Source of the DNA: Ostreococcus lucimarinus
Taxonomy: Eukaryota
Length of the DNA: 64,000 bases
NCBI GenBank assembly: GCA_000092065.1
Contig: CP000600.1
Strand: one strand, 5' to 3'
The position numbers and the translations under genes are program-made. This document shows positions 14,401-64,000 of this stretch, in pieces. Within the stretch, counting starts at the first letter, position 1; every line of letters starts with the position of its first letter. The notes beneath the pieces were generated by a model. The model ran no database searches and was not told the DNA's origin. It worked only from the letters and a program-made list of their open reading frames with translations.

Positions 14401-17400
14401 CACCGGATGGATTGGCGCCAGCGGTGCCTCCGCGGACAATATGTTCTCTGGAGCGACGGCGTGGCTCAACAACTACGGCCCGACCACAGCGGGCTCAACC
14501 ACAACCGATGGTCCCGCGAGCGCGTGGGGCAAGTTATGCGCGGCGAACCAGCGCGTGGTTTCGAACGCGTGCCAGGCGTGCCCCACCGGGAGCGTGCGCG
14601 CCGCGGGCGATAATGCAAAGGGAGTTGACACGGCGTGCGCGTGTCCCGCCAACCATTATTACGTCTCGGGCGGTGGGTGTTTGGCGTGCGCTAGCGGTCT
14701 GTTCCGTCTCGCGGGTGACGTTGCGCCCGGAGGAGATACGGCGTGTACGTACGCGTCGCCGTTCACGTTGAAGGCCGAACTCGTGAACACGATCGCGTCT
14801 TCGTACTGCCTGGGCGGCGCCGCCGCCCCCACCGGAGCTTCGTGTACGGACGGCAAGGGGTTGGGGATCGCGAATTGGGATGTCAGCGGTGTCAACGACA
14901 TGGCGGGGTTGTTCCAAGCGTCCAGTTCTAGCTGGACCTCGACCACGTTCAACGCTGATTTGAGCCTGTGGGACACGTCGTCGGTGGTAGACATGAGCAA
15001 CATGTTCAACGGCCAGATGGCGTTCAACCAACCCATCCCGACGTCGGGGTCACAATGGAACACGGCGTTGGTGACGGACATGAACAACATGTTCAACGGC
15101 GCGACGAGATTTAACCAGGACATCAGCTCGTGGGACACGTCGTTGGTGGTGAACATGAACAACATGTTCAACGGCGCGACGAGCTTTAACCAGGACATCA
15201 GCTCGTGGGTGACGCAATCGGTGACGGACATGGGCGCGATGTTTGAAAACGCGGCGGCGTTCGACCAGCCCATCCCGAAGTCGGGATCACAGTGGGACAC
15301 GACGTTGGTGAAGGACATGAGCAACATGTTCTTCGGCGCAGCGGCGTTTAACCAAGACCTCAGCACGTGGGTGACGCAATCGGTGGTGGACATGAGCGCG
15401 ATGTTTCAAAACGCGCCGCTCTTCAATTATAGTATGGTGACATCGGGTAGCGTTTGGGACACGGCGTTGGTGACGGACATGAACAACATGTTCAACGGCG
15501 CGACGAGATTTAACCAGGACATCAGCTCGTGGGACACGTCGTCGGTGGTGAACATGAACAACATGTTCAACGGCGCGACGAGCTTTAACCAGAACATCAG
15601 CTCGTGGAACACGGCGTTGGTGACGGACATGGGCGCGATGTTTCAAAGCGCGGTGGCGTTCAACCAACCCATCCCGAAGTCGGGATCACAGTGGGACACG
15701 TCGTTGGTGACAAACATGAACAACATGTTCGGCGGTGCCACGGCGTTCAACCAGGACATCGGCTCCTGGGTCGTCAGCGCCGTGGCAAACTTCGATTCCA
15801 TGTTCTCTGGAGCGACGAGCTTTAACAAGAACATCACCGGATGGATTGGCGCCGGCGGTGCCTCCGCAAACAACATGTTCTCTGGAGCGACGGCGTGGAT
15901 CGCGAGGTACGAGCACACGTCCAATCCTGGCAACAGCTTTCATGGTCCCGCGTCGGCTTGGACTGGTCCCGTTCCGTTTGCCAACTTGGCCGCTTTGCAA
16001 ACCGCCGTGACCAATTGCTTGAACAGCGCTCCGTCCGGCGCGTGCACGTGCTCGCCCAGTGTCGACTGCGGCGCCGCGCTGTACGAACCGATCACAAACT
16101 GGGACACGAGTCTGGTCGCCGACATGAATGCTTTGTTCCAAAGCGCCACTCTTTTCAACGCCAACATTGGATCGTGGAATACCGAGCAGGTGACGAGAAT
16201 GGACAACATGTTTAGCGGCGCGGCTGCGTTCAACCAGCCAATTGGCAGTTGGAACGTCACCGCGGTCACCGATGCGAGCCATATGTTTCAGGGCGCTACG
16301 GCTTTTGTTCACGACATCACCGGTTGGGTTTTATCGCAGACGCCCCAGGCGAATGTGACGTCAATGTTTGTCAATGCGATAGCATGGATAAACGAGCGTG
16401 ATCGTATAGACGGATCCGCGTCTCTCGACGGTCCACCCTCGGCGTGGTACACGCCGGCGCCGCCGCCGCCGCCGTCACCGCCGCCACCCCCGCCACCAAC
16501 GTGCGGTAACGGTGTCTACGATGCCGCTGGTACGAACCCAGATGGAACTCTTGGGGAGACGTGTGAACCGTACGGGAATTCCATCGATAACACCGTTCTC
16601 GTGCAGGGTTGCGATCCAGCCACGTGCGCGCCTTTTGAGAACTGGCAGTGCAACGATCCGTCTACGATCGGCACACCAGATTACAACTGTACGTGCAACA
16701 ATCCCGCAGGCACGTACGCGTTACCAGATGTCAATTTTTGCGCGCGCGTGAAATGCGTTTACGCAGATCGATGTCTCTCCGAAGGCCGCGGCTGCGCGCC
16801 TGGTGCTGGTGGCAACGCGTGCGACCGTTGCTACACGGCGCAAGACATCGTCGATCTCGGATTGGAAGCTTCTCTAGCCAAAGCGGGTTACTACAAAACG
16901 GGCCAAACGTGCACTGAGTGCCCTGGGACCTCGGCAGGTCAACTCTTCGCTGCCGCTACGCTTGTAGTCGTTCTGGCGTTCTTTGGTTTCAAAGCTTCGC
17001 AAGTCATGGGCCCTCAAGCGACAAACAACTTGAAGAAGATTATCGAATCTTTGCAGTTTTTTTCGCTTTCGCTGAGTATGGACATCAAATGGCCTGGCCC
17101 GGTACTTAACCTCGGCAAGTACTTGGAAGCTTTCACGTTCAGCGTCGACTTTCTGAGACCAGAGTGCGTGGCTACTGGTCTCAATTGGCTCAATATTTTC
17201 CTAGCGTCTGTGTTTGTTGTCCCTGCACTTATCTTTTTCATCATCGTCTTCAACAACTTCAGATCAAGGCGACGGTTCGAACGAACAGTGCGTTCAATTC
17301 ACTGCGAACGGCGCGATGGAGGTGCGATGGTATACTGGATTGAAAGACCGGGTCGTTTGTGGGGCATAAGGCGCACGTTCGAATCCAAAGGAGGAGATAA

Positions 17401-20400
17401 AATTGTCAAGGAATTGCAGAGGCAATACCGCTTCCGAGCCTCCCTCAGAAGCTTTGGCGTGTTGTCCATGACTGTGTTATACCTGCCCATAGTCCGTATG
17501 TGCCTCCAGGCTTTCGACTGTCTCGAAATAGACGGTATCGAGAGCACGCGTCTAGAACACGACATCGACATCGATTGCGAGAGTACTTCTCATGTGACAA
17601 TCCAGGCGGCGGCGGCGGTTATGTTGGCCATCGTCGGAATCGGTATGCCGATTTACGTCATCTCACAAGTGCGGAAACTTTCAAATACGGGGAAGTTAGA
17701 TGATCCACAAACCATCGACGCATACGGTCCATTCTACGATATATATCGTAGAGAAGATCTTACGTATTCGCACAAATTGGAGATTGCCAGACTTCGACAA
17801 ACGACGGTTCGCTCGAGATCTATTCCTCGCGGTAGCGACGATGAAGACGATCGCGAAGAAACGACGTTTGATACCGAAACTGAGCGTGTCGCTGATGAAA
17901 TTGAAAACGATATCAGACAAGATATTGAGGAACCAAACGAAGGCACTTCGTTGGAAACTACCGATGGACCCACTGACGACGTCGAGCAAGGTGAAGATTT
18001 CAACCCTGAACTCGGGAAGAAGAAAGTTTTTGGTAAAGGAAGAAAGTCAAAAGACGGGCGCTTAGCTCAAGTATTATCTATGAGTAAGTCAATGTTGCAG
18101 CGCACTCCGTCTGCGCAAGCGCGCGAGCGCGTGAAAAAGATGAGCTGGAAAGATCGGTTCTCAGTGTATTACCTCTCGGTGGAATTATGCCAGAAGAGCG
18201 GTGTCATTCTCATGACTTCGCCCTTCATCAGCGCTTCGCCTCTCAGTGGCTGGGGCCTTGTATTCATCCACTGGTTCCTCGGCATTTTCGTCTACATTTG
18301 TCAACCTTGGAGAATAATCACGTTGAGTTTCTTCGGTTTTAAGGTGTCAAATTGTCTGAACAAAGTCGAAACTATGGCGGCGTTCCTGCAAGGTGTGACG
18401 CCCGCCTTGGCGATGATATGGCCAGTTAAGCGAGACGCTGACGGCATCGTGCAGGAAAGTTTCACGCTCGAGATGATGACTGGTCTTATGACTGCCATCA
18501 TCACGGGTTTACTCGCTATTCGCATCATCGTATTCGTCGGGGAACGCGTCGCGGTCAAACGCGCAAAGATGGACATCGACAAGGAACCCGAAGCATGCAT
18601 TGAGATTGTTCGTGAACGACTCGTCGAGATGGCGAAGAAACGTGCGGTCGTGAGCTTGTTCGCGTTCAAGGCAGACTTTGATATAACACGGCGCAAAGCG
18701 CGGGCGAGAATAGAGATCACGCGTCAAGCTATGTTGACTAGAATCGACACTTTGAAGTCGGAGATGGCTAGCACCGAAGGTCAGGGTATCGATTACACGG
18801 AGCAAATCACGGCCTTGTATGAAGTGGCGAATCAGATGGCACATATCGTGAATACCGTTGTACCGATGCCTCCACCTGTTGGGCCTGCTGTAGAGGAGCG
18901 TATAGACGCTCTCGAGGCGCAGTTGTCGAAACTTTCCGTGGCCGAGGACGAACGCTACGTCGCCGCACGACAAGAGTCAGAGCCGTCGCCGAACGCTGCG
19001 GCAATGCACATAATTTTCAAGGTGCACATCGTCGATTGCATCGTTGCACAAGTCAACGAACAGCTTGAAGTATACGCGAGTGCAGAGTTAGTGAGCGATT
19101 TAGCCGTTCTTGGACGACGACATGCCGAGTTGTTGAGCGAGCAGAGCGCCATAACTTCTCAATTCGGCGACTCCGAGCTTCGTGCAACTTCAGACGAGTT
19201 ATCTTCATCAGCCGTTCCGTTACTAGAAGCGAACGAACGTGATGACTTCGAAAAGGTATCTTCCACGCTCCATCACTGTGCGAGCGTCATCGATGCGCAC
19301 GCGCAGTGGTGTATGACGCAGAGCGAGCTGTTCAGTGGCCTCAAGAGGGAGCACCCTACTTTCCTTCCGGACGAACCACCATTGACAACGGAGTGCTTCG
19401 AATCGTGCATCAAAGATCTGAAGACACATGAAAAGCAGATGGAGTTAGTTAGGACGCAGTGCATCAGCGACTGGCTTCCAATGTTCAAACATTTCGGTTG
19501 CGTCAAGTATCTCAGAGGGTTCGCCGAGCAGATTCGTAATCAACTCAGTCTCAATCTCAATGGAGAGATCACGCCAGAAGAAGCCAAGGTGGTGTATGAT
19601 GACACCGTTGCCTTCATGGATGGCTTCGCCTCGTGGTGTGCAGATTTGTGTGGCATAATCGAAACGTCAGACGTTTTCAATGAGTTTCAACCCATCGCCT
19701 CGGCCATGATGAAGAGCCTGAAGGTGATACAGATCGACGCTAAGAAGCAAAGCATGCTCGCTCAAAAAGTACTGTCGGCCGTCGACTATGCTTTGGCGCA
19801 GAAGTCCACCGCAGAGGCCGTGCGAAATAATTTGCAGCAGGCGTTGCGCGATTTAACGTCGAAAATGGAGGAGCATCTTGCCGTTCAGATGGATGAAATG
19901 AAGAATGAGAAGATCGCTCTCGAGAGAGCGTATGAAGAAGAAAAGGTGCAAACCGAGGAGGACATCAACGTCCTCGAGAAAACGTTCGCTGAGAGAAAGG
20001 CCACGATGGAGCGCGAATTTGCACTGCAGCGCGACATAGTCGAACGATTACTCGTCATGAAGCAAGAAGAGAAGGCCGCGGTCGCTCCGTCTTTGAACCC
20101 ATTCAGACGCGTACGCTTCGAGTACGAAAACGAGCTCGCGAGCGCCAATAAGGAGTGCCTCAGGATCTCACGAGCCTTGGAGAGAGAAGAGAACGTGAAA
20201 AATATGCAGTGTGAAAACTTGCTTCGAGCGATGCAGCAAACCGAGCGTCAGCTGCGAGCGCAGATTAAAATCCACGATTCACTCATGGCAAAGATGGAAG
20301 CCGATGTCTTGGATCACCTCAAAAAGCAAGGCAACGTGGCGCAAAAGCGAACGGCTCACGATATCGCGGCGAACAAGGCCGTGCTCGCGTCGCGAAAAGC

Positions 20401-20683
20401 CATCTATAAGCAGCAACGTATCGCTGCACAGCTGTACGTATCCGTAGAACGCGAGACTACGAGAGCTCAAGTCGGTCTCACGAGAACGAAACTTGCGGTG
20501 GCTAAACGTAAAGGGCTGCTTGTACGCACAACCTCGCGCCTGACGGGAAAATCCCTGCGGTCAAAATCGCGAAAGAAAGCGCACGACGAAAACGAGACGG
20601 TCAAAGACGATCAACAAGAAAAGGAGGTTGAAGATCAAACCGCGGTTGATGAAAAAAGCAACGTCACGGAGACGAAGACGTAA
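11423..20683 (+). CDS. Giant DUF285-repeat transmembrane coiled-coil protein (about 3086 aa from the predicted signal peptide)
   Basis: - Signal-peptide-like start: [35 protein letters not shown].
- About 50 tandem 25-27 aa repeats of consensus [25 protein letters not shown] (DUF285, Mycoplasma-type).
- Three cysteine-rich inserts: [45 protein letters not shown]...
- Pro-rich linker [12 protein letters not shown] near 16450.
- Cys-rich module from about 16500 to 16900.
- About 7-8 TM helices from about 16930 to 18550.
- Long Glu/Lys-rich coiled coil from about 18600 to 20683.
- ORF 11111..20683 was trimmed to the Met of the signal peptide. Confidence 0.75.
11930..15470 (+). repeat. Three tandem 1.1-1.25 kb near-identical coding units inside the giant gene (units start near 11930, 13040 and 14290)
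   Basis: Each unit restarts with FK(N/D)[15 protein letters not shown](A/V)[10 protein letters not shown] and contains the same Cys-rich insert. The antisense ORFs 12170..12766, 13241..13657 and 14534..15031 translate to almost identical peptides, and so do 12295..12942, 13399..14121 and 14659..15393, which shows near-identity at nucleotide level. Units A and C share GGHTACT/GGDTACT-type variants against B. Confidence 0.7.
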
Positions 20684-20711
20684 ATTGAAATTTCTGTCAT
20701 AATACAGTAGT

Positions 20712-21581
20712 TTATTTCTTCGTGTCGTCAAGTTCGTCGTCGTATTCGTGAGCCGCGCGCCCGCTCCGTACGGCGTTTGCGACTTTCGAGCGGGCGCTCC
20801 CATCGGCGTATCGACCGATGTGTTCTAAATACGCGGCCCAATCGGGCAACGTTTTACGCACCTGTTCGCGAGCCAGCATCGCGTCCAACCACGCGTGATA
20901 TGAAGCCAGCGCGGCGGTTTTCGGAATCGCGTAGTCGGCTCCGCGATAGTGTTCAAATACCGGAAGCCGCCAAGCCCACGGGAACAACGCGTAATCCACC
21001 AATCCAGGAGCCTCGCCGGAGTAAAACGGTGATTTCTTATTCTCGTCGCACCACGACGCAAACCTCTCCAACCCTTCAATAATCGCCTCAAACGCCTCGC
21101 GCTGCTCTGCGGGATTCTGACGCACCAGCACGTGATAATACTTGCTGCATATCTGTTTATTCACCCAATCCGCGTCCACTCTCGCCCGCGCTCGCTCGTA
21201 CGGACAGCTACTCATGATCGGTGTCGTCCCTCCCCTCACGATTTCGTCGATAAACTGCACGCACACCAACGACTCCGTGACCACGTTCTTCGTCGCGTCG
21301 CCTCGCTTCGCGTTATACGTCTCCGGCGACACGAGCGTCGGCACCATCCCGAGTGGGTTGTGTTTCAGCAGCGTCGGTGATTTGTAGTGGTACCAGTTTT
21401 CGTGCGCAGTCTCGACGCTCGCGTCCGTGGCTCTGCGTTTCTCCCAGCCGAGCGCCTCTTCCCAGTCGTACGTCAGGTGACCGTGATGATGTTCCAACGC
21501 CAGCGTCGCGCGATGCGCGAAAGGACAGAACCAGGCGCTGAAGTAGTGGAGGTGTGGCACCGCCGCACCGCGAGCGGACAT
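20712..21581 (-). CDS. Omega-class-like glutathione S-transferase / dehydroascorbate reductase family
   Basis: Active-site CPFA motif (HYFSAWFCPFAHRATLALE), NPLGMVPTL, and C-terminal VDYALFPWAWRL as in GSTO. ATG confirmed. Confidence 0.85.
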   Translation of the reverse strand: MSARGAAVPHLHYFSAWFCPFAHRATLALEHHHGHLTYDWEEALGWEKRRATDASVETAHENWYHYKSPTLLKHNPLGMVPTLVSPETYNAKRGDATKNVVTESLVCVQFIDEIVRGGTTPIMSSCPYERARARVDADWVNKQICSKYYHVLVRQNPAEQREAFEAIIEGLERFASWCDENKKSPFYSGEAPGLVDYALFPWAWRLPVFEHYRGADYAIPKTAALASYHAWLDAMLAREQVRKTLPDWAAYLEHIGRYADGSARSKVANAVRSGRAAHEYDDELDDTKK

Positions 21582-21733
21582 CGGGGCGAGTGTCGACGCG
21601 CGACGAGAAATGACGCTACGTTTGGGACTCGACGGGGGATAGACCCGCGGCGGCGCGGTACGCTACGTCGTTGAACGTTACATCGTGATTCGTGCGCGTC
21701 GATCGGTCGACGGTCGGTCGGTGAGGTGAGTCA

Positions 21734-22855
21734 CTAGGTGCGATCTTTTCGTCTGCGGTTCATGAACCAGATGCGTATGGAAGACGGCGAACTCGCGCCG
21801 ACGTCGGCGGCGATTTCGGCCAGGGCTGAAGACTTCGGCACGCGGGTGCCGGTTTGGAATAAACGCTCGAGCGTAGCCTTTTGTTCCGAGCTAAAGCGCG
21901 CTCTCGCGCGATGGCGTTTCTCCGCGGTGCCGTTATCGTTGCAGTTATCCTTCCGTCTCTTCTTGTCGCCCGTTTTCGGCGAAGAAGTCGCGGCGTTGGA
22001 GCCGACGTTTTTATTTTGCAGCGCCGCGAGCATCTCCGCCTTTGTCTTGTTGGACCTTTTCCATCCGAGCTCTTCGGCTTCGCCTTCGTAAGCCTCGTCG
22101 TCGCCGAACATGTCGCTGTTTAATTTGACGTAATCCACCTTAGTTCGCCGCCGCGGGCCTTCGATGATTAGATCGGACTCTGATTCGCTGCTCGACTCTT
22201 CGCTCGACGAGCGCGCGCTACCGCTCAGCGCCTCGTTTTCGTCATCACGCCCGTCGTCGCTCGCGCGTCCGTGATCGAAGTCTTCGTCCTCGCTTTCATC
22301 ACTCGGCCATGCCTCTTCATGCGCGTGCGCAAACTGCGCGGTTCCGGGAACGATGCCCTTCTCCTGCATCTCAGCCTCAGCCTTGAACACGTCCTCGGCG
22401 ACGCACTTTTGCCCCAAGTCTTGTTCGTATTCGTCGTTGAGAACGTAAATGACGTCCACTCGCGCGTCGCACAGCGGGCACAGCCAACCTTCGTCATCCG
22501 GTGGAATGTCTTCCGTCTTCACCGCAGGCACCACGCACGACTGATGGTACGCCCGATCGCAAAACCCATCGCAAAGCAAAATATCGTCCTCCTCCCTGTC
22601 GTCCGCCATCGCGCACTTGCTACAAAATATATCCGCCGCGTCCGTCTCCCCGAGCTCATCCTCCACCGTCGTGATCTCGCGCTCGTTCGGATCGAACTCT
22701 AACCCCTTAAACAACTCTCTGATCTTCACTTTACCCTTAAAAATCTTTTCTCGCGCCAACGCCAGCTCGCCGAGCGGTTTCGGTTTCTGCGAAGCCGCCC
22801 CGCGCCACCCGTCGCCGGCGTACGCGTCCAACAGCGACTGATGTCTTCGAATCAT
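21734..22855 (-). CDS. PHD-finger homeodomain protein (plant HAT3.1/PRHA-like)
   Basis: PHD Cys4-His-Cys3 (CSKCAM..LLCDGFCDRAYHQSCV..WLCPLCDAR). C-terminal homeodomain (RFSSEQKATLERLFQ...IRIWFMNRRRK). The ORF-track start is GTG, so the start was trimmed to the first ATG (MIRRHQ). Confidence 0.8.
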   Translation of the reverse strand: MIRRHQSLLDAYAGDGWRGAASQKPKPLGELALAREKIFKGKVKIRELFKGLEFDPNEREITTVEDELGETDAADIFCSKCAMADDREEDDILLCDGFCDRAYHQSCVVPAVKTEDIPPDDEGWLCPLCDARVDVIYVLNDEYEQDLGQKCVAEDVFKAEAEMQEKGIVPGTAQFAHAHEEAWPSDESEDEDFDHGRASDDGRDDENEALSGSARSSSEESSSESESDLIIEGPRRRTKVDYVKLNSDMFGDDEAYEGEAEELGWKRSNKTKAEMLAALQNKNVGSNAATSSPKTGDKKRRKDNCNDNGTAEKRHRARARFSSEQKATLERLFQTGTRVPKSSALAEIAADVGASSPSSIRIWFMNRRRKDRT

Positions 22856-22983
22856 CGCAAACTGCGACTGAATCCGCGAGCGCACCGTCGCATACGGCGA
22901 CTATCCGCGCGCGCATCGCGCGTCATCGTCAGTCTTCGCGCGGCGTCCACCTCTCTCTCGCGCGTTCGCGTCCGCCGTCGATT

Positions 22984-23022
22984 TCGAATTCCAAATTCCA
23001 AATTCCAAATTCCAAATTCCAC
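22984..23022. repeat. (AATTCCA)5 heptanucleotide microsatellite in divergent promoter
   Basis: gaattccaaattccaaattccaaattccaaattcc seen directly; lies between the PHD-homeobox (-) and E(z) (+) starts. Confidence 0.6.
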
Positions 23023-23407
23023 GCTCCGCGTTCGAGCTCGCGTCTCTCGCGCCTCGTTCGCCTCTTCCGCGCGTCGCCGTCGCCGTTCGCGCACCTCGTT
23101 CGCTCGCGCGCGTCCGTCGTCGTCCTTCCTCGGTCGTCCGCGCCGTCGCGTCGTCTCGTCTCTCGTTCGCGCGCCGCCTCGCGCGCGTCCTCCCGTCGCG
23201 CGCGCGCGCGCGCCGCGCCCCGATCCGCGCGCGCCGCGCGCGCCGTCGTCGTCGTCGCTCGCGGTCGGGTCGTAGCGCCGCGTCGGCGCGCGCGCGCGAC
23301 CGCGTCGGCGCCGCATCGACGAACGCGACGCGGCGCACACTGCCGCGCGTCGCCGCGTCGCCGTCGCGTCGCGGTCGCGCGCGCGTCGCCGTCGCGCGGC
23401 GCGCGCG

Positions 23408-26350
23408 ATGACGACGCGCGCCGCGCGCGCGCCGCGCGCGGCGTCGCCGCGCGGCGCGGACGCGACGCGACGGCGCGACGGCGCGATCGACGCCGACGAC
23501 GCCGACGCGACGGCGACCGCGCGCGCGCGCGCGAGCGCGAACGACGCGCGCGCGCGATCGGCGGCGGTGCTGGACGTCGTCGATCTCACGCTCGACGTCG
23601 AGGCGCCGCGCGCGGCGACGGCGACGGCGACGGCGACGGCGGACGCGCGAGGCGACGCGACGCGCGGCGACGACGCCGAGGCGGTGAAGATCCTCGACGA
23701 CGGTTTGCCGACGTCGAAGCCGAAGGCGAGGGATGGAAAGCCGACGGCGCGATCGGGTGAGAATGGAAAGTCGCGCGCGTCGGGGTCGGGGCGGATCGAA
23801 CGCGTGGCGGAGGTGCTGCAGTCGCCCGAGAAGGCGTGGCCGCGAGAGGAGGCGGCGGCGGAGGACGACGACGACGCGAAGGTTTCGGTGAGTTTTGAAC
23901 TCGAGTTCTGCGCGGCGATGCGAGAGGGGTTGGAGGGAAGACGGACGGAGGCGATGGAGGCGATGGAGACGCTCGAAGCGACGGTGGGATCGAGGGTGTT
24001 TCAGAACGCGGACGCGGCGGCGGCGGAGGCGCGGACGAGGACGAGGAGCGCGGCGAAGCGCGCGCGTAGGATTTTTCGGGAGGAAACTAAGCTTTGGGCG
24101 GCGGCGGTGGTGAAAGCGCAGCAACTGACGATAGACGATGACGTGCCGTCGACGTCGGAACCCGTCGCGATGGAGTTGCCGTTTTGGCAGCGCATCTCGA
24201 GCGAGCACCTGGGCGCGTCGAGCGCGAGGAATACGAAGATTTTCACGCAGCGCACCGAACGGCCGTATTCGAGTGATCCGACCGATGTAAGCGGCTGGAA
24301 GCTGCAAACAATAGTAGGGCGACAATCTGTACCTCGAATAGACATCGGTAGCGCCAAGGCGGTGCCGCCCTACGCTTACTTTGCGTACTCGACGCACTGC
24401 AACTCGTACGAGGCGGAAGGAAACGTCTCGCGCCTACTCTTCAGGGACGACGATGGAGAGTTCTTAGAATCAGATCCCGTCGATCGGCGCGAAGACGAGA
24501 GTAATGAGCTCACTCGCGAGCAGGAAATCATCATGTGCGCGATATGCGCGGAGTTTAGCGAGTTCATTTTGACAGAAAAAGAAGTCGTGCGAGGGGTGAA
24601 TCGCGAAGACGGCGTGAAAGCCGTCGTGGTACAAACAGCCGAATATTTGAACTTGGACGAAAACCAAGTCAAGGATTGGTTTGATGAGACGCGCACGAAG
24701 CACAGCACGAGCCGTGCATGGTGTATGTTTCTCGAAGTTGCCTCGCACGTACGCAAGTTGATGGGCTTCTCCTCGGCGCATTGGCGCGCGAAGATGGCAA
24801 ACACATTCAGCGTTCTCGAAACTCTCGGGATCAGCGAATTGTTCTGGCGGAAGTTTTCGCGAATCATCATCAATTGTCCGACGCTCGCTCCGTTGAAAAA
24901 GCCTGTCATCGTGTTTGACAATCTCAACGAAGCCATGGATCAGCTCGCCGGCATGTTTTGTCCGCGATGCTTCATCTTTGATTGCAGAACGCACGGGTCG
25001 TTGCAGCCCAAGTCGGAAGGCAGGAAGCTTGATGCGGAAAGAAAGCTTGCATGGCGCGAGCGCATGGCAAAGAGCGGCATGTCTGCGGAAAAGCCGTTAG
25101 CTGAGCGACGATGTTCGACAGATTGCTGGTATCAAACAGAAGAGTACAAGTACTACTCTGCGCAGACAACCTGCGCACCATGCGATCCCACAGAAACTCT
25201 CAATCGTCCGTCGACGAAAGATCCGTTCATCGAGACGACGAGGAAATGGCGCAACGCGATGGATATTGAAGTCTTGAAGAAGGCTGTCAAAATAATCGGT
25301 GAGAAAACCACGGCGTGCGAGGCAGCGTTGTTCTTTGGCCGTCGTCGCACGTGCGCCGAAGTCGGGAAGCAAATGCACTGTTTGGATCTCATCAACCTTG
25401 GAACTGTGGTGAAGGAAGAAGAGCGCGACGCGATGGATGAAGATACCGACGAATTGAGTAATCCGAAGAAGCGCAAACGCGCGCCGACGGGGGTCAAAAA
25501 TCCAACAATTGCGCGACGATTGAAGATGCAAAAGGATGCCGATTTTCTGGAAACGCAATACTCCCCGTGCGAATGCGTCGGCGCTTGTGACGCTAACACG
25601 TGCTCCTGCATTAAGAATGGTACCTTTTGTGAGAGATTTTGCAACTGTGGACCGAAGTGTCACAACGAGTTCGAGGGTTGCAAGTGCGACAGTACGAAGC
25701 GCGCAACGTGCGGCACAAGAACGTGTCCGTGCTACGCCGCCGGTCGCGAATGCACGCCAGATAAATGTAAACGGTGTTGCAAGACCGCTGATGCGTACTC
25801 TTTGCCCGCTCGTAAAAGGTATGGCCTCGTCGATCCGAACATGCAACTGCCCATGCCGGCGTTTCCGTGTGAGAACATGAAGCTACAACTTCGACAGAAG
25901 GAGCACATTTGTTTGGGTCGAAGCGGTGTTGCCGGTTGGGGTGCGTTCGTGTTGAAAGGCGCTCGGAAAGGAGAGTTCATCGGCGAATACGTCGGCGAAC
26001 TCGTGACTCAGGACGAAGCCGAACGTCGAGGAACGGTGTACGATGTCAACAACTGCTCGTACTTGTTCAATCTCAACAGCGAATGGTGCGTCGACGCTCA
26101 ATACAGAGGGAACAAACTGCGCTTTGCCAATCACTCGAAGAACCCGAATTGCGTGCCTCGCGTTCTCGCGGTGAATGGTGATCATCGACTGGCGCTGATA
26201 TCAGACAAAGACATCAAACCAGGCGATGAATTACTGTTCGACTACAATTACAAGGACGAAGTCGCACCCGACTGGCACGAGAAAAACGCATCGACGTTGC
26301 CCAAGTCGAAGCACCTTCCAACGAAAAGCGCGAAGAAATCATCGAACTGA
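23408..26350 (+). CDS. Enhancer-of-zeste-like histone H3K27 methyltransferase (CXC + SET domains)
   Basis: CXC domain (CNCGPKCHNEFEGCKCDSTKRATCGTRTCPCYAAGRECTPDKCKRCC). SET domain (GWGAFVLKGARKGEFIGEYVGELV...RFANHSKNPNC...GDELLFDYNY). Low-complexity Arg/Ala/Asp N-terminus. TGTAA about 35 nt after the stop. Confidence 0.85.
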   Translation: MTTRAARAPRAASPRGADATRRRDGAIDADDADATATARARASANDARARSAAVLDVVDLTLDVEAPRAATATATATADARGDATRGDDAEAVKILDDGLPTSKPKARDGKPTARSGENGKSRASGSGRIERVAEVLQSPEKAWPREEAAAEDDDDAKVSVSFELEFCAAMREGLEGRRTEAMEAMETLEATVGSRVFQNADAAAAEARTRTRSAAKRARRIFREETKLWAAAVVKAQQLTIDDDVPSTSEPVAMELPFWQRISSEHLGASSARNTKIFTQRTERPYSSDPTDVSGWKLQTIVGRQSVPRIDIGSAKAVPPYAYFAYSTHCNSYEAEGNVSRLLFRDDDGEFLESDPVDRREDESNELTREQEIIMCAICAEFSEFILTEKEVVRGVNREDGVKAVVVQTAEYLNLDENQVKDWFDETRTKHSTSRAWCMFLEVASHVRKLMGFSSAHWRAKMANTFSVLETLGISELFWRKFSRIIINCPTLAPLKKPVIVFDNLNEAMDQLAGMFCPRCFIFDCRTHGSLQPKSEGRKLDAERKLAWRERMAKSGMSAEKPLAERRCSTDCWYQTEEYKYYSAQTTCAPCDPTETLNRPSTKDPFIETTRKWRNAMDIEVLKKAVKIIGEKTTACEAALFFGRRRTCAEVGKQMHCLDLINLGTVVKEEERDAMDEDTDELSNPKKRKRAPTGVKNPTIARRLKMQKDADFLETQYSPCECVGACDANTCSCIKNGTFCERFCNCGPKCHNEFEGCKCDSTKRATCGTRTCPCYAAGRECTPDKCKRCCKTADAYSLPARKRYGLVDPNMQLPMPAFPCENMKLQLRQKEHICLGRSGVAGWGAFVLKGARKGEFIGEYVGELVTQDEAERRGTVYDVNNCSYLFNLNSEWCVDAQYRGNKLRFANHSKNPNCVPRVLAVNGDHRLALISDKDIKPGDELLFDYNYKDEVAPDWHEKNASTLPKSKHLPTKSAKKSSN

Positions 26351-42924: not shown

Positions 42925-44064
42925 ATGCGACGCGTCGCGATCGACGCGCGGGCGGGACGGGGACCGCGGTGCGCGGTGGAGCCGCGAGGCGGACGCCGAC
43001 GGATGAGGACCGGGACGAAGACGACGCGCGCGGCGCGAGACGTCGCCGTCGTGGGACCGCGCGACGACGCGGCGCGGACGCTGAACAGGACGTATCTCTC
43101 GTCCAAGGCGGCGCGCGCGGGAGCGGGCGAGGAAGAGGCGTGGACGCGTTGCGTCGTCGACCGCGTGGAGGCGCGGTCGAGAAGTCTCGTGCTGCGAGTG
43201 ATCGACGGGTCCGATAGAGTGTTCCCGATTTTCGCGGAGACGGAGAGCGATGAACGGGCGCTGGTGCGAATCGTGCACGTGCTTCGTCGTAAGCGCAAGG
43301 GATCTGGGGGGCTCGCGAGCCGGGATTGGACGCTCGCTCCTCAAATTTTGACGTGCTCGATTTCAGTCGACGCCGACGGATTGCGAGCGAAGCTCTCGAA
43401 AAAGCTCCCCGTCTTGGCGAGCGCGCTGATGACGGACAGCGACGTTGACACGTACGACGAATCGAACGTTCCGGTGTTTCAGGCGTTGCGAGAGGCGATC
43501 GATCCGCGCCAGTCACCGGCGTTGTACTTGAGCTCGAGTGCGGTGGATCGCTTGTGCTTTGACGGTTCCTGGCGATTGACGTACACGCCCGGAATGGCGT
43601 GCTTGCGACGCGCTGCGTTCACGTTCGGTGGTGCGCTTCTCGCGTCACATGTCTATCGCGCAGAAAGAGAGATCGTGCTGAAACGTAAGGCGCGTAAGGA
43701 TGAAGAGGTTTGGATTTTGACTCACACCTTGATCTCTCGAGAAACCCGAGTACTCGACCACGTATTAACCCTCAGAGTCATGCTCGCGTGCTCTGTTCGC
43801 GAGGAACGCGCGCTGCGAATGAACAAACGTGATACTGTCGATGACTTTGTGAATCGGCTGCGGAGTCAAAACGCGGGTTCGCAAGCGATCGCTCGGATGA
43901 TAGATGGCGCCCTTCCCGGATCGATTCGAGATCGCTCGCCTGGATTCTGGATGTTGGCGTACGAAAACTTTGTTCTGGACGAAGATTACGAACGAGCCGC
44001 TACCGCGCGTGATGTGTTAAACGAGCTCAACGTTTTTGTGGACGAAGAAGGTGCGTTTGATTGA
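42925..44064 (+). CDS. Hypothetical protein (no recognised domain)
   Basis: 379-aa ORF with an ATG and a balanced, protein-like composition; moderate GC. Confidence 0.5.
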   Translation: MRRVAIDARAGRGPRCAVEPRGGRRRMRTGTKTTRAARDVAVVGPRDDAARTLNRTYLSSKAARAGAGEEEAWTRCVVDRVEARSRSLVLRVIDGSDRVFPIFAETESDERALVRIVHVLRRKRKGSGGLASRDWTLAPQILTCSISVDADGLRAKLSKKLPVLASALMTDSDVDTYDESNVPVFQALREAIDPRQSPALYLSSSAVDRLCFDGSWRLTYTPGMACLRRAAFTFGGALLASHVYRAEREIVLKRKARKDEEVWILTHTLISRETRVLDHVLTLRVMLACSVREERALRMNKRDTVDDFVNRLRSQNAGSQAIARMIDGALPGSIRDRSPGFWMLAYENFVLDEDYERAATARDVLNELNVFVDEEGAFD

Positions 44065-61685: not shown

Positions 61686-62579
61686 CTACGACGGCGAATC
61701 CTTCGCGCGTTTCGAGCTGCGCCCGTCGCTCTTCTCTAAATCGTTCTCGCTCTTTCTCTTCTCCTTCTTCTCCTTCTTCTCCTTCTTCTCCTTCTTCTCC
61801 TTCTTCTCCTTCTTCTCCTTCTCCTTTTTCGACTTTTTCTCGCGCCGCGAATCCGAATCCGCCGGCGCGACGAGCTTGCGCTCGATGCTCGTGATCCCAC
61901 TCGACGATCTCGCCACGTACTCGCGCTCGCCCGTGGCGGGATCTTTCATCGCCCCTCTCAGCAACACCACGTCATCGCTCTCCGTCACCGCTTTCACCGT
62001 GAACACGATCTGCGACCCGACCTTTATCACGTGCGTCGCGTCCCACGCGCTTCGCCAGCACCCGTCGTCGCTCGACGACACCAACTCCTCCCGTATATTT
62101 TCCGCCGCGATCGCGACGTTAAATCTATCCAGCACCAACGCTCCGATAAAATCGTGCGCGATCTTATTCACCGTGCCGACCAAGCGCGATTCTTTCACCG
62201 GCGTGAACACCTCGCACCGCGCTCGCACGCGCACGTCCACGTGCCCGCTCGCGTGCAGCACCCTTCCGAACCCTCCTCGCCCGTCGTCGTCGTCCGCCTC
62301 CGCGTCGTCGCTCTCGGACGTCGACGTTTCATCGTCGCCGTCGTCGTCGCCGTCGTCGTCGCGCTCGCGTCGTCGCGCGCCGCACAGCGCTTCGTCGTCG
62401 TACGCCATGAGCACGCCGCCGAGCGCGTCCACGTGTCGCATCTTCATCGCGTCGAGCACCGCGCGCGCGCCCGCGAGCGGGTCCGCGAGCGCCGACGGGT
62501 GGAGCGCGACGGTGAACACGCACGACCTCGTCGCCACCGCGCTCGACGCGCGCGCGTCGTCGGCGCGAGGGCGCGCCAT
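61686..62579 (-). CDS. RNA polymerase Rpb7-like subunit (RPA43-like) with (KKE)n tail
   Basis: The N-terminal Rpb7/SHS2-like pattern runs from MARPRADDARASSAVATRSCVFTVALHPSALADPLAGARAVLDAMKMRHVDALGGVLMAYDDE through HASGHVDVRVRARCEVFTPVKESRLVGTVNKIAHDFIGALVLDRFNVAI. An S1-like half follows. ORF 61686..63251 was trimmed to MARPRADD. Confidence 0.6.
   Translation of the reverse strand: MARPRADDARASSAVATRSCVFTVALHPSALADPLAGARAVLDAMKMRHVDALGGVLMAYDDEALCGARRRERDDDGDDDGDDETSTSESDDAEADDDDGRGGFGRVLHASGHVDVRVRARCEVFTPVKESRLVGTVNKIAHDFIGALVLDRFNVAIAAENIREELVSSSDDGCWRSAWDATHVIKVGSQIVFTVKAVTESDDVVLLRGAMKDPATGEREYVARSSSGITSIERKLVAPADSDSRREKKSKKEKEKKEKKEKKEKKEKKEKKEKRKSENDLEKSDGRSSKRAKDSPS
61750..61830. 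repeat. Perfect 9-mer microsatellite (cttctcctt)n, about 8-9 copies, coding (KKE)n on the minus strand
   Basis: ttctccttcttctccttcttctccttc... seen directly; translates to KKEKKEKKEKKEKKEKKEK in the RPA43-like tail. Confidence 0.8.
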
Positions 62580-62696
62580 CGTGTGACGGGACCGGCGGCG
62601 GCGGGTTCGTACTAGGTCCGTGTGTGTCTCACTTCGCCGCAATGAGACTCGACGCCCCGCGCGACCGCACGACGCGACCGCACGACCGCGCGCGCG

Positions 62697-62969
62697 ATGG
62701 CGTACGTCGCGCGCGACGGCGCGGTCGCCGCGCGCCCGTTCTCGCTCGTCGCCGCCCTCTGGGGCGCGCTCGACGTCGTGGACGCCTTCTTCCGAACGCT
62801 CCTCGTCGAAGGCCACGCCGACGCGTACGCGCGACGAACGACGACCGCGCGCGCGACGACGCCCGGACGCGTCGCCGCGACGACCGCGCGCGGCGCGGCC
62901 GTGCGCGGGTTCGCAAACGTGCGAACGATCGATCACGCCGCGCCGACGGCGGGCGGATGAGGACGATAA
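62697..62969 (+). CDS. SELENOK: Selenoprotein K with in-frame TGA (Sec) at 62958-62960, ending ...AGG-U-GR-TAA
   Basis: - The ORF-track entry 62697..62960 (87 aa) stops at TGA.
- Continuing in frame gives GGA CGA TAA, i.e. ...PTAGG-Sec-GR-stop, the SelK C-terminal signature (human ...MAGGUGR).
- The N-terminus MAYVARDGAVAARPFSLVAALWGALDVVDAFFRTLL parallels SelK MVYISNGQV..SPWRLSLITDFFWGIAEFVVLFFKTLL.
- It lies in an otherwise unexplained 690-bp intergenic gap. Confidence 0.75.
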
Positions 62970-63067
62970 GGGACGCCACGGCGGCGTCGTCGCGCGACGA
63001 TTGCTTCGACCGACGACGACGACGCCGCGCGTCCCGAGCGCGCCGACGCGCGCGAGATCGGACGCGC

Positions 63068-63138
63068 CGAGCGATCGGGCGCGCGCGGGTGACGCCGCGG
63101 TGGGAATGACGTCGACGACGTCGCCACCGCGGTCGATG
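63068..63138 (+). promoter_or_regulatory. Candidate SECIS element (form 2) in SelK 3' UTR
   Basis: gcgcgg-G-UGA-cg-ccgcggugg-GAAU-gacguc-gac-gacguc-g-ccaccgcgg-uc-GAU-ga-ccgcgc. Helix I is 6 bp. The core is UGA/GA (GUGA variant). Helix II is 9 bp plus a G-U pair. An AA bulge sits 11 nt after the core. A 6-bp helix III is formed by the two GACGUC copies. It is about 110 nt downstream of the Sec codon. Folded by eye only. Confidence 0.4.
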
Positions 63139-63268
63139 ACCGCGCCTTCGCTCGGCGCGCGCGGCGCGCACGCTGTAAACGAGAATCCAACCGCTGCGCG
63201 TAACACCCTCCGAGAACTAGTAGTACAAATAAAGATTACAAGAATCATCAAAGCTATTCATGACCAAG

Positions 63269-64000
63269 CTATTCATCGATGGACTTTGAGCGCGACGTCG
63301 ATCTTTTGCGCGCGTGTCTCTTCAACGTCGACTCGACATCTTCCAAGCGCAAACCTTTCGTCTCGGGGATGAAACGATCGACAAAAACGTATCCGCTAGC
63401 GCACAGCAGAGTATAGAAACCGTATGATCCACTCAATCCGTACGCGCCAACCATCGGCAGAAAGGTTGCACCGACGATTGAGTTTGATACATAGTTCAGA
63501 GCGGTGCACGCCGAAACGGCTCGAGCGCGAATGCGGGTGGGGAATACTTCATTGTACAAGAGCCACGGAATCGGACCTGCGCCGAGAGAGAAGAATAAAA
63601 CGTACAATGGGATTGTGACGAGCGCGACTGCTGCTTCGGGTTGTGCCGGTCCCGCACTCGCGGGCGACAGTGCGGCAAAATCCGCACAAATCTGAGCGCT
63701 CGCCATCGTGGGATACGAGTACAATCCGTCGTCGATTTGTTGGCTCAGTTTTCCCACGAGCACGCCAAGCTCTGGGTTGGCGCAAAACGAGCTTAGCTCG
63801 TTCGCAGGGGTGAGATACGCGGCGAGAGACAAAATGCCCAAGCACGCACTCATGCCTCCGAATGAAGTGAGGAGAAGAGGTCGACGACCCATTTTGTCTG
63901 ACAGGGCCAGCGCGACAAAGCCACCGACGACGTTCGGCACGCCCACCGCCCAAGTCAAAATTTCTGGATTATTTATTCCCACGCTCGTGAACACAGTGGA
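63269..64000 (-). CDS. MFS sugar-porter-family transporter, C-terminal part (gene continues beyond window end)
   Basis: Sugar-porter motifs (AVGVPNVVGGFVALALSDKMGRRPLLL; GAGPIPWLLYNEVFPTRIRARA; PETKGLRLEDVE); the listed Met at 63994 is internal to the TM7-8 region, so the N-terminus is off-window. Confidence 0.8.
   Translation of the reverse strand, partial: STVFTSVGINNPEILTWAVGVPNVVGGFVALALSDKMGRRPLLLTSFGGMSACLGILSLAAYLTPANELSSFCANPELGVLVGKLSQQIDDGLYSYPTMASAQICADFAALSPASAGPAQPEAAVALVTIPLYVLFFSLGAGPIPWLLYNEVFPTRIRARAVSACTALNYVSNSIVGATFLPMVGAYGLSGSYGFYTLLCASGYVFVDRFIPETKGLRLEDVESTLKRHARKRSTSRSKSIDE

Follow-up and report, generated by a model that had tools for sequence, protein, structure and literature searches.

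The stretch 62697-62969 on the plus strand of the window, that is, of the whole 64,000-nucleotide stretch of Ostreococcus lucimarinus DNA analyzed here, is almost certainly the selenoprotein K (SelK) gene of this alga, in which an in-frame UGA is read as selenocysteine (Sec) by means of a type-II SECIS element located in the 3'-UTR. Coding continues through the UGA, the protein matches the SelK family, the SECIS covaries across orthologous loci, and the gene is identical to one already published. A preliminary description of this DNA had proposed a Sec-encoding UGA in a SelK gene; conservation, Pfam and BLASTP searches, the covarying SECIS, and the publication all back this proposal. According to the established eukaryotic mechanism, the SECIS (63083-63145) would recruit SBP2, eEFSec, and Sec-tRNA[Ser]Sec, and the ribosome would read the UGA at 62958-62960 as Sec instead of terminating. 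Sec would then occupy residue 88, followed by Gly-Arg and the UAA stop, and the predicted product, 90 residues long, has a hydrophobic N-terminal segment that is probably a membrane anchor.

An ATG at 62697 opens an 87-codon ORF (62697-62960), as can be read directly from the sequence. The C-terminal codons are ...ACG GCG GGC GGA TGA GGA CGA TAA, which gives a product ending in ...AGG-U-GR. The letters agree with the preliminary description, in which an 87-residue ORF closed at TGA and was followed by GGA CGA TAA. The coding features are as follows:

62697-62969 (+): complete SelK coding sequence, 90 codons (87 + Sec + Gly + Arg), then the TAA stop
62958-62960 (+): UGA predicted to be read as selenocysteine, residue 88; TGA is invariant in 36/36 loci and aligns with the U of GGUGR in published SelK
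62961-62969 (+): Gly-Arg codons and true stop, GGA (62961-62963), CGA (62964-62966), and TAA (62967-62969)

The G+C content in the SelK frame is 0.86 at the third codon position, 0.75 at the first, and 0.65 at the second. The program-made ORF list ends the SelK ORF at the TGA, and so do the database copies, as expected from the earlier remark that ORF finders miss genes of this kind. Upstream of 62697, frame-changing indels are found in variants that are 94-98% identical to the window; hence, the leader is non-coding, and coding constraint starts at MAYV. Another ATG is located at 62642, 55 nt upstream of the SelK start (62642-62696, plus strand). It is out of frame in the window, where it would form an overlapping upstream ORF if transcribed, and it is in frame in close metagenome variants, which are therefore called as 106- or 126-residue proteins.

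A protein search for SelK relatives returned 23 clusters, all of marine metagenome origin. All 23 end at the TGA and, where named, are labeled "hypothetical protein". The DNA of orthologues was obtained for 8 loci by exact protein look-up and for 29 more by a metagenome scan with protein alignment; 36 loci reach the C-terminus, with protein identity to the window down to about 45%. In every one of these 36 loci, the TGA is followed by GGA, then by CGA, CGG, or CGT (all Arg), and then by TAA or TAG. All changes downstream of the TGA in these metagenome loci are synonymous. Neither a Cys codon nor another stop replaces the TGA in any of the 36 loci, and homologues with a plain stop and no Gly-Arg extension, which the preliminary description had named as evidence against a selenoprotein, were seen in 0/36. 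Contig L038 (run SRR1179204) matches the window with 100% identity; it may be genomic or transcript-derived and does not inform on the 3' end.

Codon changes in the C-terminal block were counted as well. In frame 0, nine orthologues differ from the window by 55 synonymous and 24 non-synonymous codon changes, while the shifted forward frames of the same block give 20/89 and 13/96 synonymous/non-synonymous differences. The L020 and L023 loci were excluded from these totals, since a one-codon indel puts both out of register in the ungapped block.

These data bear on the possibility that the TGA is an ordinary stop, so that the gene encodes an 87-residue protein ending in ...AGG and the conservation downstream reflects an unrelated regulatory structure in the 3'-UTR. 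All database copies are called in this way, as "hypothetical protein", and Rfam gives no SECIS match. Moreover, some termination at the UGA probably takes place beside Sec insertion, as is known, in part from PMC6844570, for mammalian SelS and SelK. However, an ordinary stop does not account for GGA-CGN-TAR beyond the TGA in 36/36 loci with synonymous change only, for the identity of GGUGR with the animal SelK motif, for a downstream structure that has the invariant bases and spacing that define a SECIS, or for the publication of the gene as a selenoprotein. We consider this explanation very improbable.

The metagenome loci L020 and L022-L027 form a clade in which Sec is preceded by G-A or P-A; elsewhere it is preceded by G-G. 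In the same clade, the conserved block reads GFG[DE]NVRGVDH. In mammals, the C-terminal Gly-Gly that results from UGA termination is a degradation signal on truncated SelK and SelS. The UGA-terminated product of this clade would end without Gly-Gly.

The only family match of the protein is Pfam SelK_SelG (PF10961). The window protein scores 22.2 bits with E = 2.3e-4, which is 1.1 bits short of the cut-off (gathering score 23.3). All six diverse orthologues tested (6/6) match the family, with the best E = 3.1e-6, and PF10961 is precomputed on three database orthologues. A BLASTP comparison with human SelK gave an end-to-end alignment with 27% identity and E = 3e-7; the human query is consistent with the SelK fragments that the supplement of Lobanov et al. 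2007 prints. The alignment takes in the M-x-Y-[VI] start, the hydrophobic segment ending in FF[RK]TLL, and the terminal AGG-U-GR. Both comparisons that had been suggested for placing the protein, namely the alignment of the conceptual translation with the SelK family and the family search itself, point to SelK, the latter just below its cut-off for the window protein. The ...AGG-U-GR end had been recognized as the SelK C-terminal motif in the preliminary description, and it does align with GGUGR of human, mouse, and chicken SelK.

As for the N-terminal region noted earlier as SelK-like, residues 14-32 align with the membrane segment of human SelK. The hydropathy of this region is borderline for a membrane helix: the peak 19-residue Kyte-Doolittle mean is 1.52 (residues 14-32), with a usual threshold of 1.6. 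When the Ostreococcus protein is compared with animal SelK, represented by human SELENOK, their common features are the size (90 vs. 94 residues), the M-x-Y-[VI] start, FF[RK]TLL, and AGG-U-GR with Sec third from the end. A type-II SECIS is likewise common to the Ostreococcus gene and animal SelK. The linkers differ: that of the Ostreococcus protein is rich in Ala, Thr, and Arg, whereas the human one is rich in Gly and Pro. The block GFANVRTIDH is found in the algal group only and not in animal SelK.

The SelK gene is located between two genes of the minus strand:

61689-62579 (-): RPA43-like gene with an RPA43 OB domain (RPA43_OB, E = 8.8e-9), upstream and divergent
from 63269 (-): sugar transporter, downstream and convergent

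The same two genes flank SelK in metagenome contigs, which indicates conserved synteny. The C-terminus of the RPA43-like protein is a long Lys/Glu repeat (KKEKKEKKEKK...). As for the composition of the window, the G+C content is 61% overall, 65% in the first 8 kb, and 57% at 16001-24000.

A 521-codon ORF (61686-63251, minus strand) runs antisense through the whole SelK gene and the SECIS. If this ORF were the real gene, the SelK-like frame would be a by-product of high G+C. It is indeed the longest ORF across the region, and the antisense frame that shares wobble positions with SelK also has many synonymous differences (55/54). Nevertheless, the family match of the ORF is limited to 61689-62579, the gene calls in orthologous contigs end the RPA43-like gene before SelK, and the stretch antisense to SelK is of low complexity and rich in Arg, Gly, and Ala. 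The plus strand, in turn, has a Pfam match and the better synonymous/non-synonymous ratio. There is hardly any probability left for a minus-strand gene across SelK. The 521-codon ORF arises by artefactual extension of the RPA43-like gene in the upstream direction. The gene itself is real from the ATG at 62579 down; the Arg/Gly/Ala-rich translation of 62580-63251 (minus strand) is an artefact of high G+C.

The SECIS of the SelK gene was delimited by RNAfold, by a strict pattern scan in which it is the sole match, by the alignment of 18 variants, and by covariation. It consists of the following parts:

63083-63145 (+): type-II SECIS
63083-63088 / 63140-63145 (+): helix I, 6 bp, GCGCGG/CCGCGC
63089 (+): unpaired G
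63090-63093 / 63134-63137 (+): core, UGAC opposite CGAU
63094-63103 / 63124-63133 (+): helix II, 10 bp
63105-63106 (+): AA bulge, 12 nt past the core UGA (63090-63092)
63107-63113 / 63117-63123 (+): helix III (mini-stem), 7 bp with a 3-nt loop
63066-63156 (+): possible extension of the lower stem, GCCGAGCG (63066-63073) with CGCUCGGC (63149-63156)

Both strands of the possible lower-stem extension are conserved in the window and in the L001 and L002 clades; the minimum free energy structure uses a slightly different register.

Unguided folding of 63060-63170 with RNAfold recovered helices I, II, and III (-74.2 kcal/mol, z = -3.0 against dinucleotide shuffles). The structure contains an internal loop with UGA facing GA, a GAA bulge, and a 7-bp apical mini-stem. 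The preliminary description had seen a form-2 SECIS with a quartet, an AA bulge, and a third helix, and all of these elements are present in the unguided fold. The SECISearch criteria (PMC2375036) call for the pattern NTGA..AA..GA, in which the AA follows the quartet after 10-13 nt and precedes the 3' GA by 15-39 nt. The window has GTGA at 63089-63092, the AA 12 nt on, and 28 nt from the AA to the GA (63135-63136).

The strict scan was modelled on these criteria: it required an NTGA followed by a helix II of at least 9 pairs with no more than one mismatch, an AA 10-13 nt past the core, and a GA on the 3' side, with helix I measuring 4 bp or more. On both strands of the 64-kb window (128 kb), it gave exactly one match, 63090/63135; therefore, the match is more than chance. 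A relaxed scan added two candidates, 21478-21513 (plus strand) and 43733-43780 (minus strand). Each has two mismatches in helix II and lies inside a long opposite-strand ORF, and both were rejected as probable chance matches; the minus-strand ORF upstream of the second candidate ends with TAG, not TGA.

The SECIS of the SelK gene is located in the 3'-UTR, on the same strand as the UGA and ahead of the convergent sugar-transporter gene. The distance from the Sec UGA to the SECIS core is 132 nt in the window and 91-148 nt in the orthologues. The stem-loop had earlier been placed about 110 nt downstream, which is right for the distance from the TAA to helix I (113 nt) and wrong for the core UGA as measured from the Sec UGA. 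The end given at that time, 63140, was too short, since the 3' strand of helix I reaches 63145.

Every orthologue whose sequence extends far enough 3' likewise has one strict-scan match in the corresponding position. In four loci, helix I alone fell short of what the scan required; their core is identical to that of L005. In an alignment of 18 distinct variants, the unpaired G with the UGA, the apical GGGAA, and the GAU of the 3' core are invariant. RNAalifold predicts helix II and helix III in the same register as the SECIS, and 8 of the 15 pairs show compensatory double changes. When the SECIS structure is specified, 85.7% of the cells are paired; sliding the 3' partners by 1-3 columns lowers this to 31-58%. 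The covariation score is 0.416, compared with at most 0.115 for the slid partners, and none of 500 shuffles reaches the observed values. Altogether, twelve SECIS pairs carry double changes among the 18 variants. Helix II is paired in 97.2% of the cells, with double changes in three pairs and one-sided changes in four; helix III is paired in 86.5%, with double changes in 6 of its 7 pairs. Helix I, in a fixed register, is paired in 65.7% across the orthologues, and its weakness across clades results from the differing sizes of the internal loops.

Could the stem-loop at 63083-63145 be a generic stable hairpin of the 3'-UTR that serves mRNA stability or 3'-end formation and is not a SECIS? G+C-rich sequence folds readily, the z score of the fold is only -3.0, and Rfam finds no match. 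Against this stand the invariance of the unpaired G-UGA, GGGAA, and GAU while the helices change by compensation, and a spacing between core and AA that is exactly 12 nt in every lineage. A generic hairpin would also have no reason to be in the constant company of an in-frame UGA. We regard such a hairpin as extremely unlikely, and the structure is treated below as a SECIS.

The Rfam results deserve separate consideration. The Rfam SECIS covariance model gave no match at E<=10 in 62500-63400, and a search of the whole 64-kb window with Rfam release 15 found nothing at the gathering score. The covariance-model call on which the preliminary description had made the SECIS depend was thus not obtained with Rfam; however, the model did not match any of 7 orthologous loci either, even at E<=10, including the O. 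tauri-type locus. As Rfam misses all 7 orthologous loci, including the type with a published SelK, its negative result is uninformative. The Rfam SECIS model appears to have low sensitivity, with the elements of this algal lineage falling beyond its reach. Weak Rfam matches to miRNA and sRNA families were dismissed as generic G+C-rich hairpins; the ones at 62965-63037 coincide with the hairpin that follows the stop codon.

The SECISearch3 core consensus is UGAN/KGAW (PMC3753652). The 5' side, UGAC, agrees with UGAN, and the 3' side departs from KGAW: it is CGAU in the clade of the window and UGAU in other clades. The C in place of K is a one-base departure at the least constrained position of the quartet, and it sets the clade of the window apart from this metazoan-based consensus.

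The SelK gene of O. lucimarinus was already published in 2007 with the same boundaries; it is neither new nor unusual for a gene of this type. Lobanov et al. 2007 (Genome Biol 8:R198, PMC2375036) reported 26 selenoproteins in O. tauri and 29 in O. lucimarinus, SelK among them. Their supplementary file 2 places O. lucimarinus SelK at Chr_20 [286697, 286966] (PMC2375036). Subtraction of 224000 from these coordinates gives 62697-62966 in the window, i.e., 270 nt or 90 codons, starting at the ATG and closing with the complete Arg codon. The window is very probably O. lucimarinus chromosome 20, 224001-288000. The printed SelK sequence, MAY-VARDGAV-AAR-PFS-LVAALW ... TTPGRVAATTARG-A-AVRGFANVR-TIDHA-APTA-GGUGR (PMC2375036), matches the window protein, with a few OCR errors in the text of the supplement. 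At the diagnostic positions TTPGRV and GAAVRGF, it agrees with the window and differs from the metagenome variants. The O. tauri row of the same publication matches P0021/L004.

Lobanov et al. 2007 (PMC2375036) describe the SECIS elements of Ostreococcus as type II; in nearly all of them, an unpaired G precedes the quartet and the mini-stem is long. The window SECIS has all three features in common with this Ostreococcus type, including the unpaired G in place of an A. Compared with the published O. lucimarinus SelK, the gene in the window is the same, and nothing of substance differs. The O. tauri SelK (ostta14g01560) is present in a proteomics table (PMC8834552). One supplement of "The algal selenoproteomes" (PMC7539508) contains neither the window sequence nor SELENOK.

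The value of this analysis as a discovery is small, given that the Ostreococcus SelK and its SECIS type were published in 2007 and the O. tauri protein has been seen by proteomics. Its practical side is different: in public protein collections, the SelK gene is truncated at the UGA and labeled "hypothetical protein", and, because the Rfam SECIS model does not pick up the elements of this lineage, the automated annotation of picoalgal genomes and metagenomes still misses such genes.

Two further elements can be noted in the 3'-UTR:

62970-63035 (+): hairpin from the first base past the stop codon, with a GGGACGC...GCGTCCC base; resembles a proximal stem-loop
63174-63178 (+): TGTAA, located 29 nt past the 3' end of SECIS helix I; candidate poly(A) signal

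The TGTAA is conserved in L001 and L002, and TGTAC is found near the equivalent place in more distant clades. UGUAA is presumably the green-algal poly(A) signal. As a candidate signal of this kind, it would put the 3' end of the mRNA just past the SECIS.

The hairpin that follows the stop codon is stable (-45.7 kcal/mol, z = -4.53); none of 200 shuffles folds equally well. Since large indels made the spacer between the UGA and the SECIS impossible to align with MAFFT, an anchored stem statistic was used in place of column-wise covariation. A perfect stem of at least 7 bp within 1 nt of the post-stop position is present in 12/12 lineages, compared with 31.5% at random anchors in the same loci; the 12 lineages are related, so this contrast should not be read as a formal probability. 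Stem sequences vary from lineage to lineage, and the hairpins span 21-86 nt.

The human SelS and SelK mRNAs carry a proximal stem-loop (PSL) directly 3' of the stop codon (Cockman et al. 2019, PMC6844570). When it was deleted, SelS recoding rose about 2-fold, while SelK recoding did not change (PMC6844570). The algal and human mRNAs have in common a stable 3'-UTR stem-loop that abuts the stop codon and a Sec within a few codons of the C-terminus. The algal hairpin has no sequence similarity to the human PSL, and its length is highly variable among the algae. By this analogy, the hairpin may be a functional modulator of recoding or termination equivalent to the human SelS/SelK PSL, a suggestion that we consider possible, though rather doubtful. 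The conserved post-stop hairpin is a mildly new item and a small lead for work on Sec insertion at C-terminal UGA codons. If the suggestion is true, mRNAs in which Sec is located a few codons before the stop would share a stop-adjacent stem-loop as a trait that is ancient or has evolved repeatedly.
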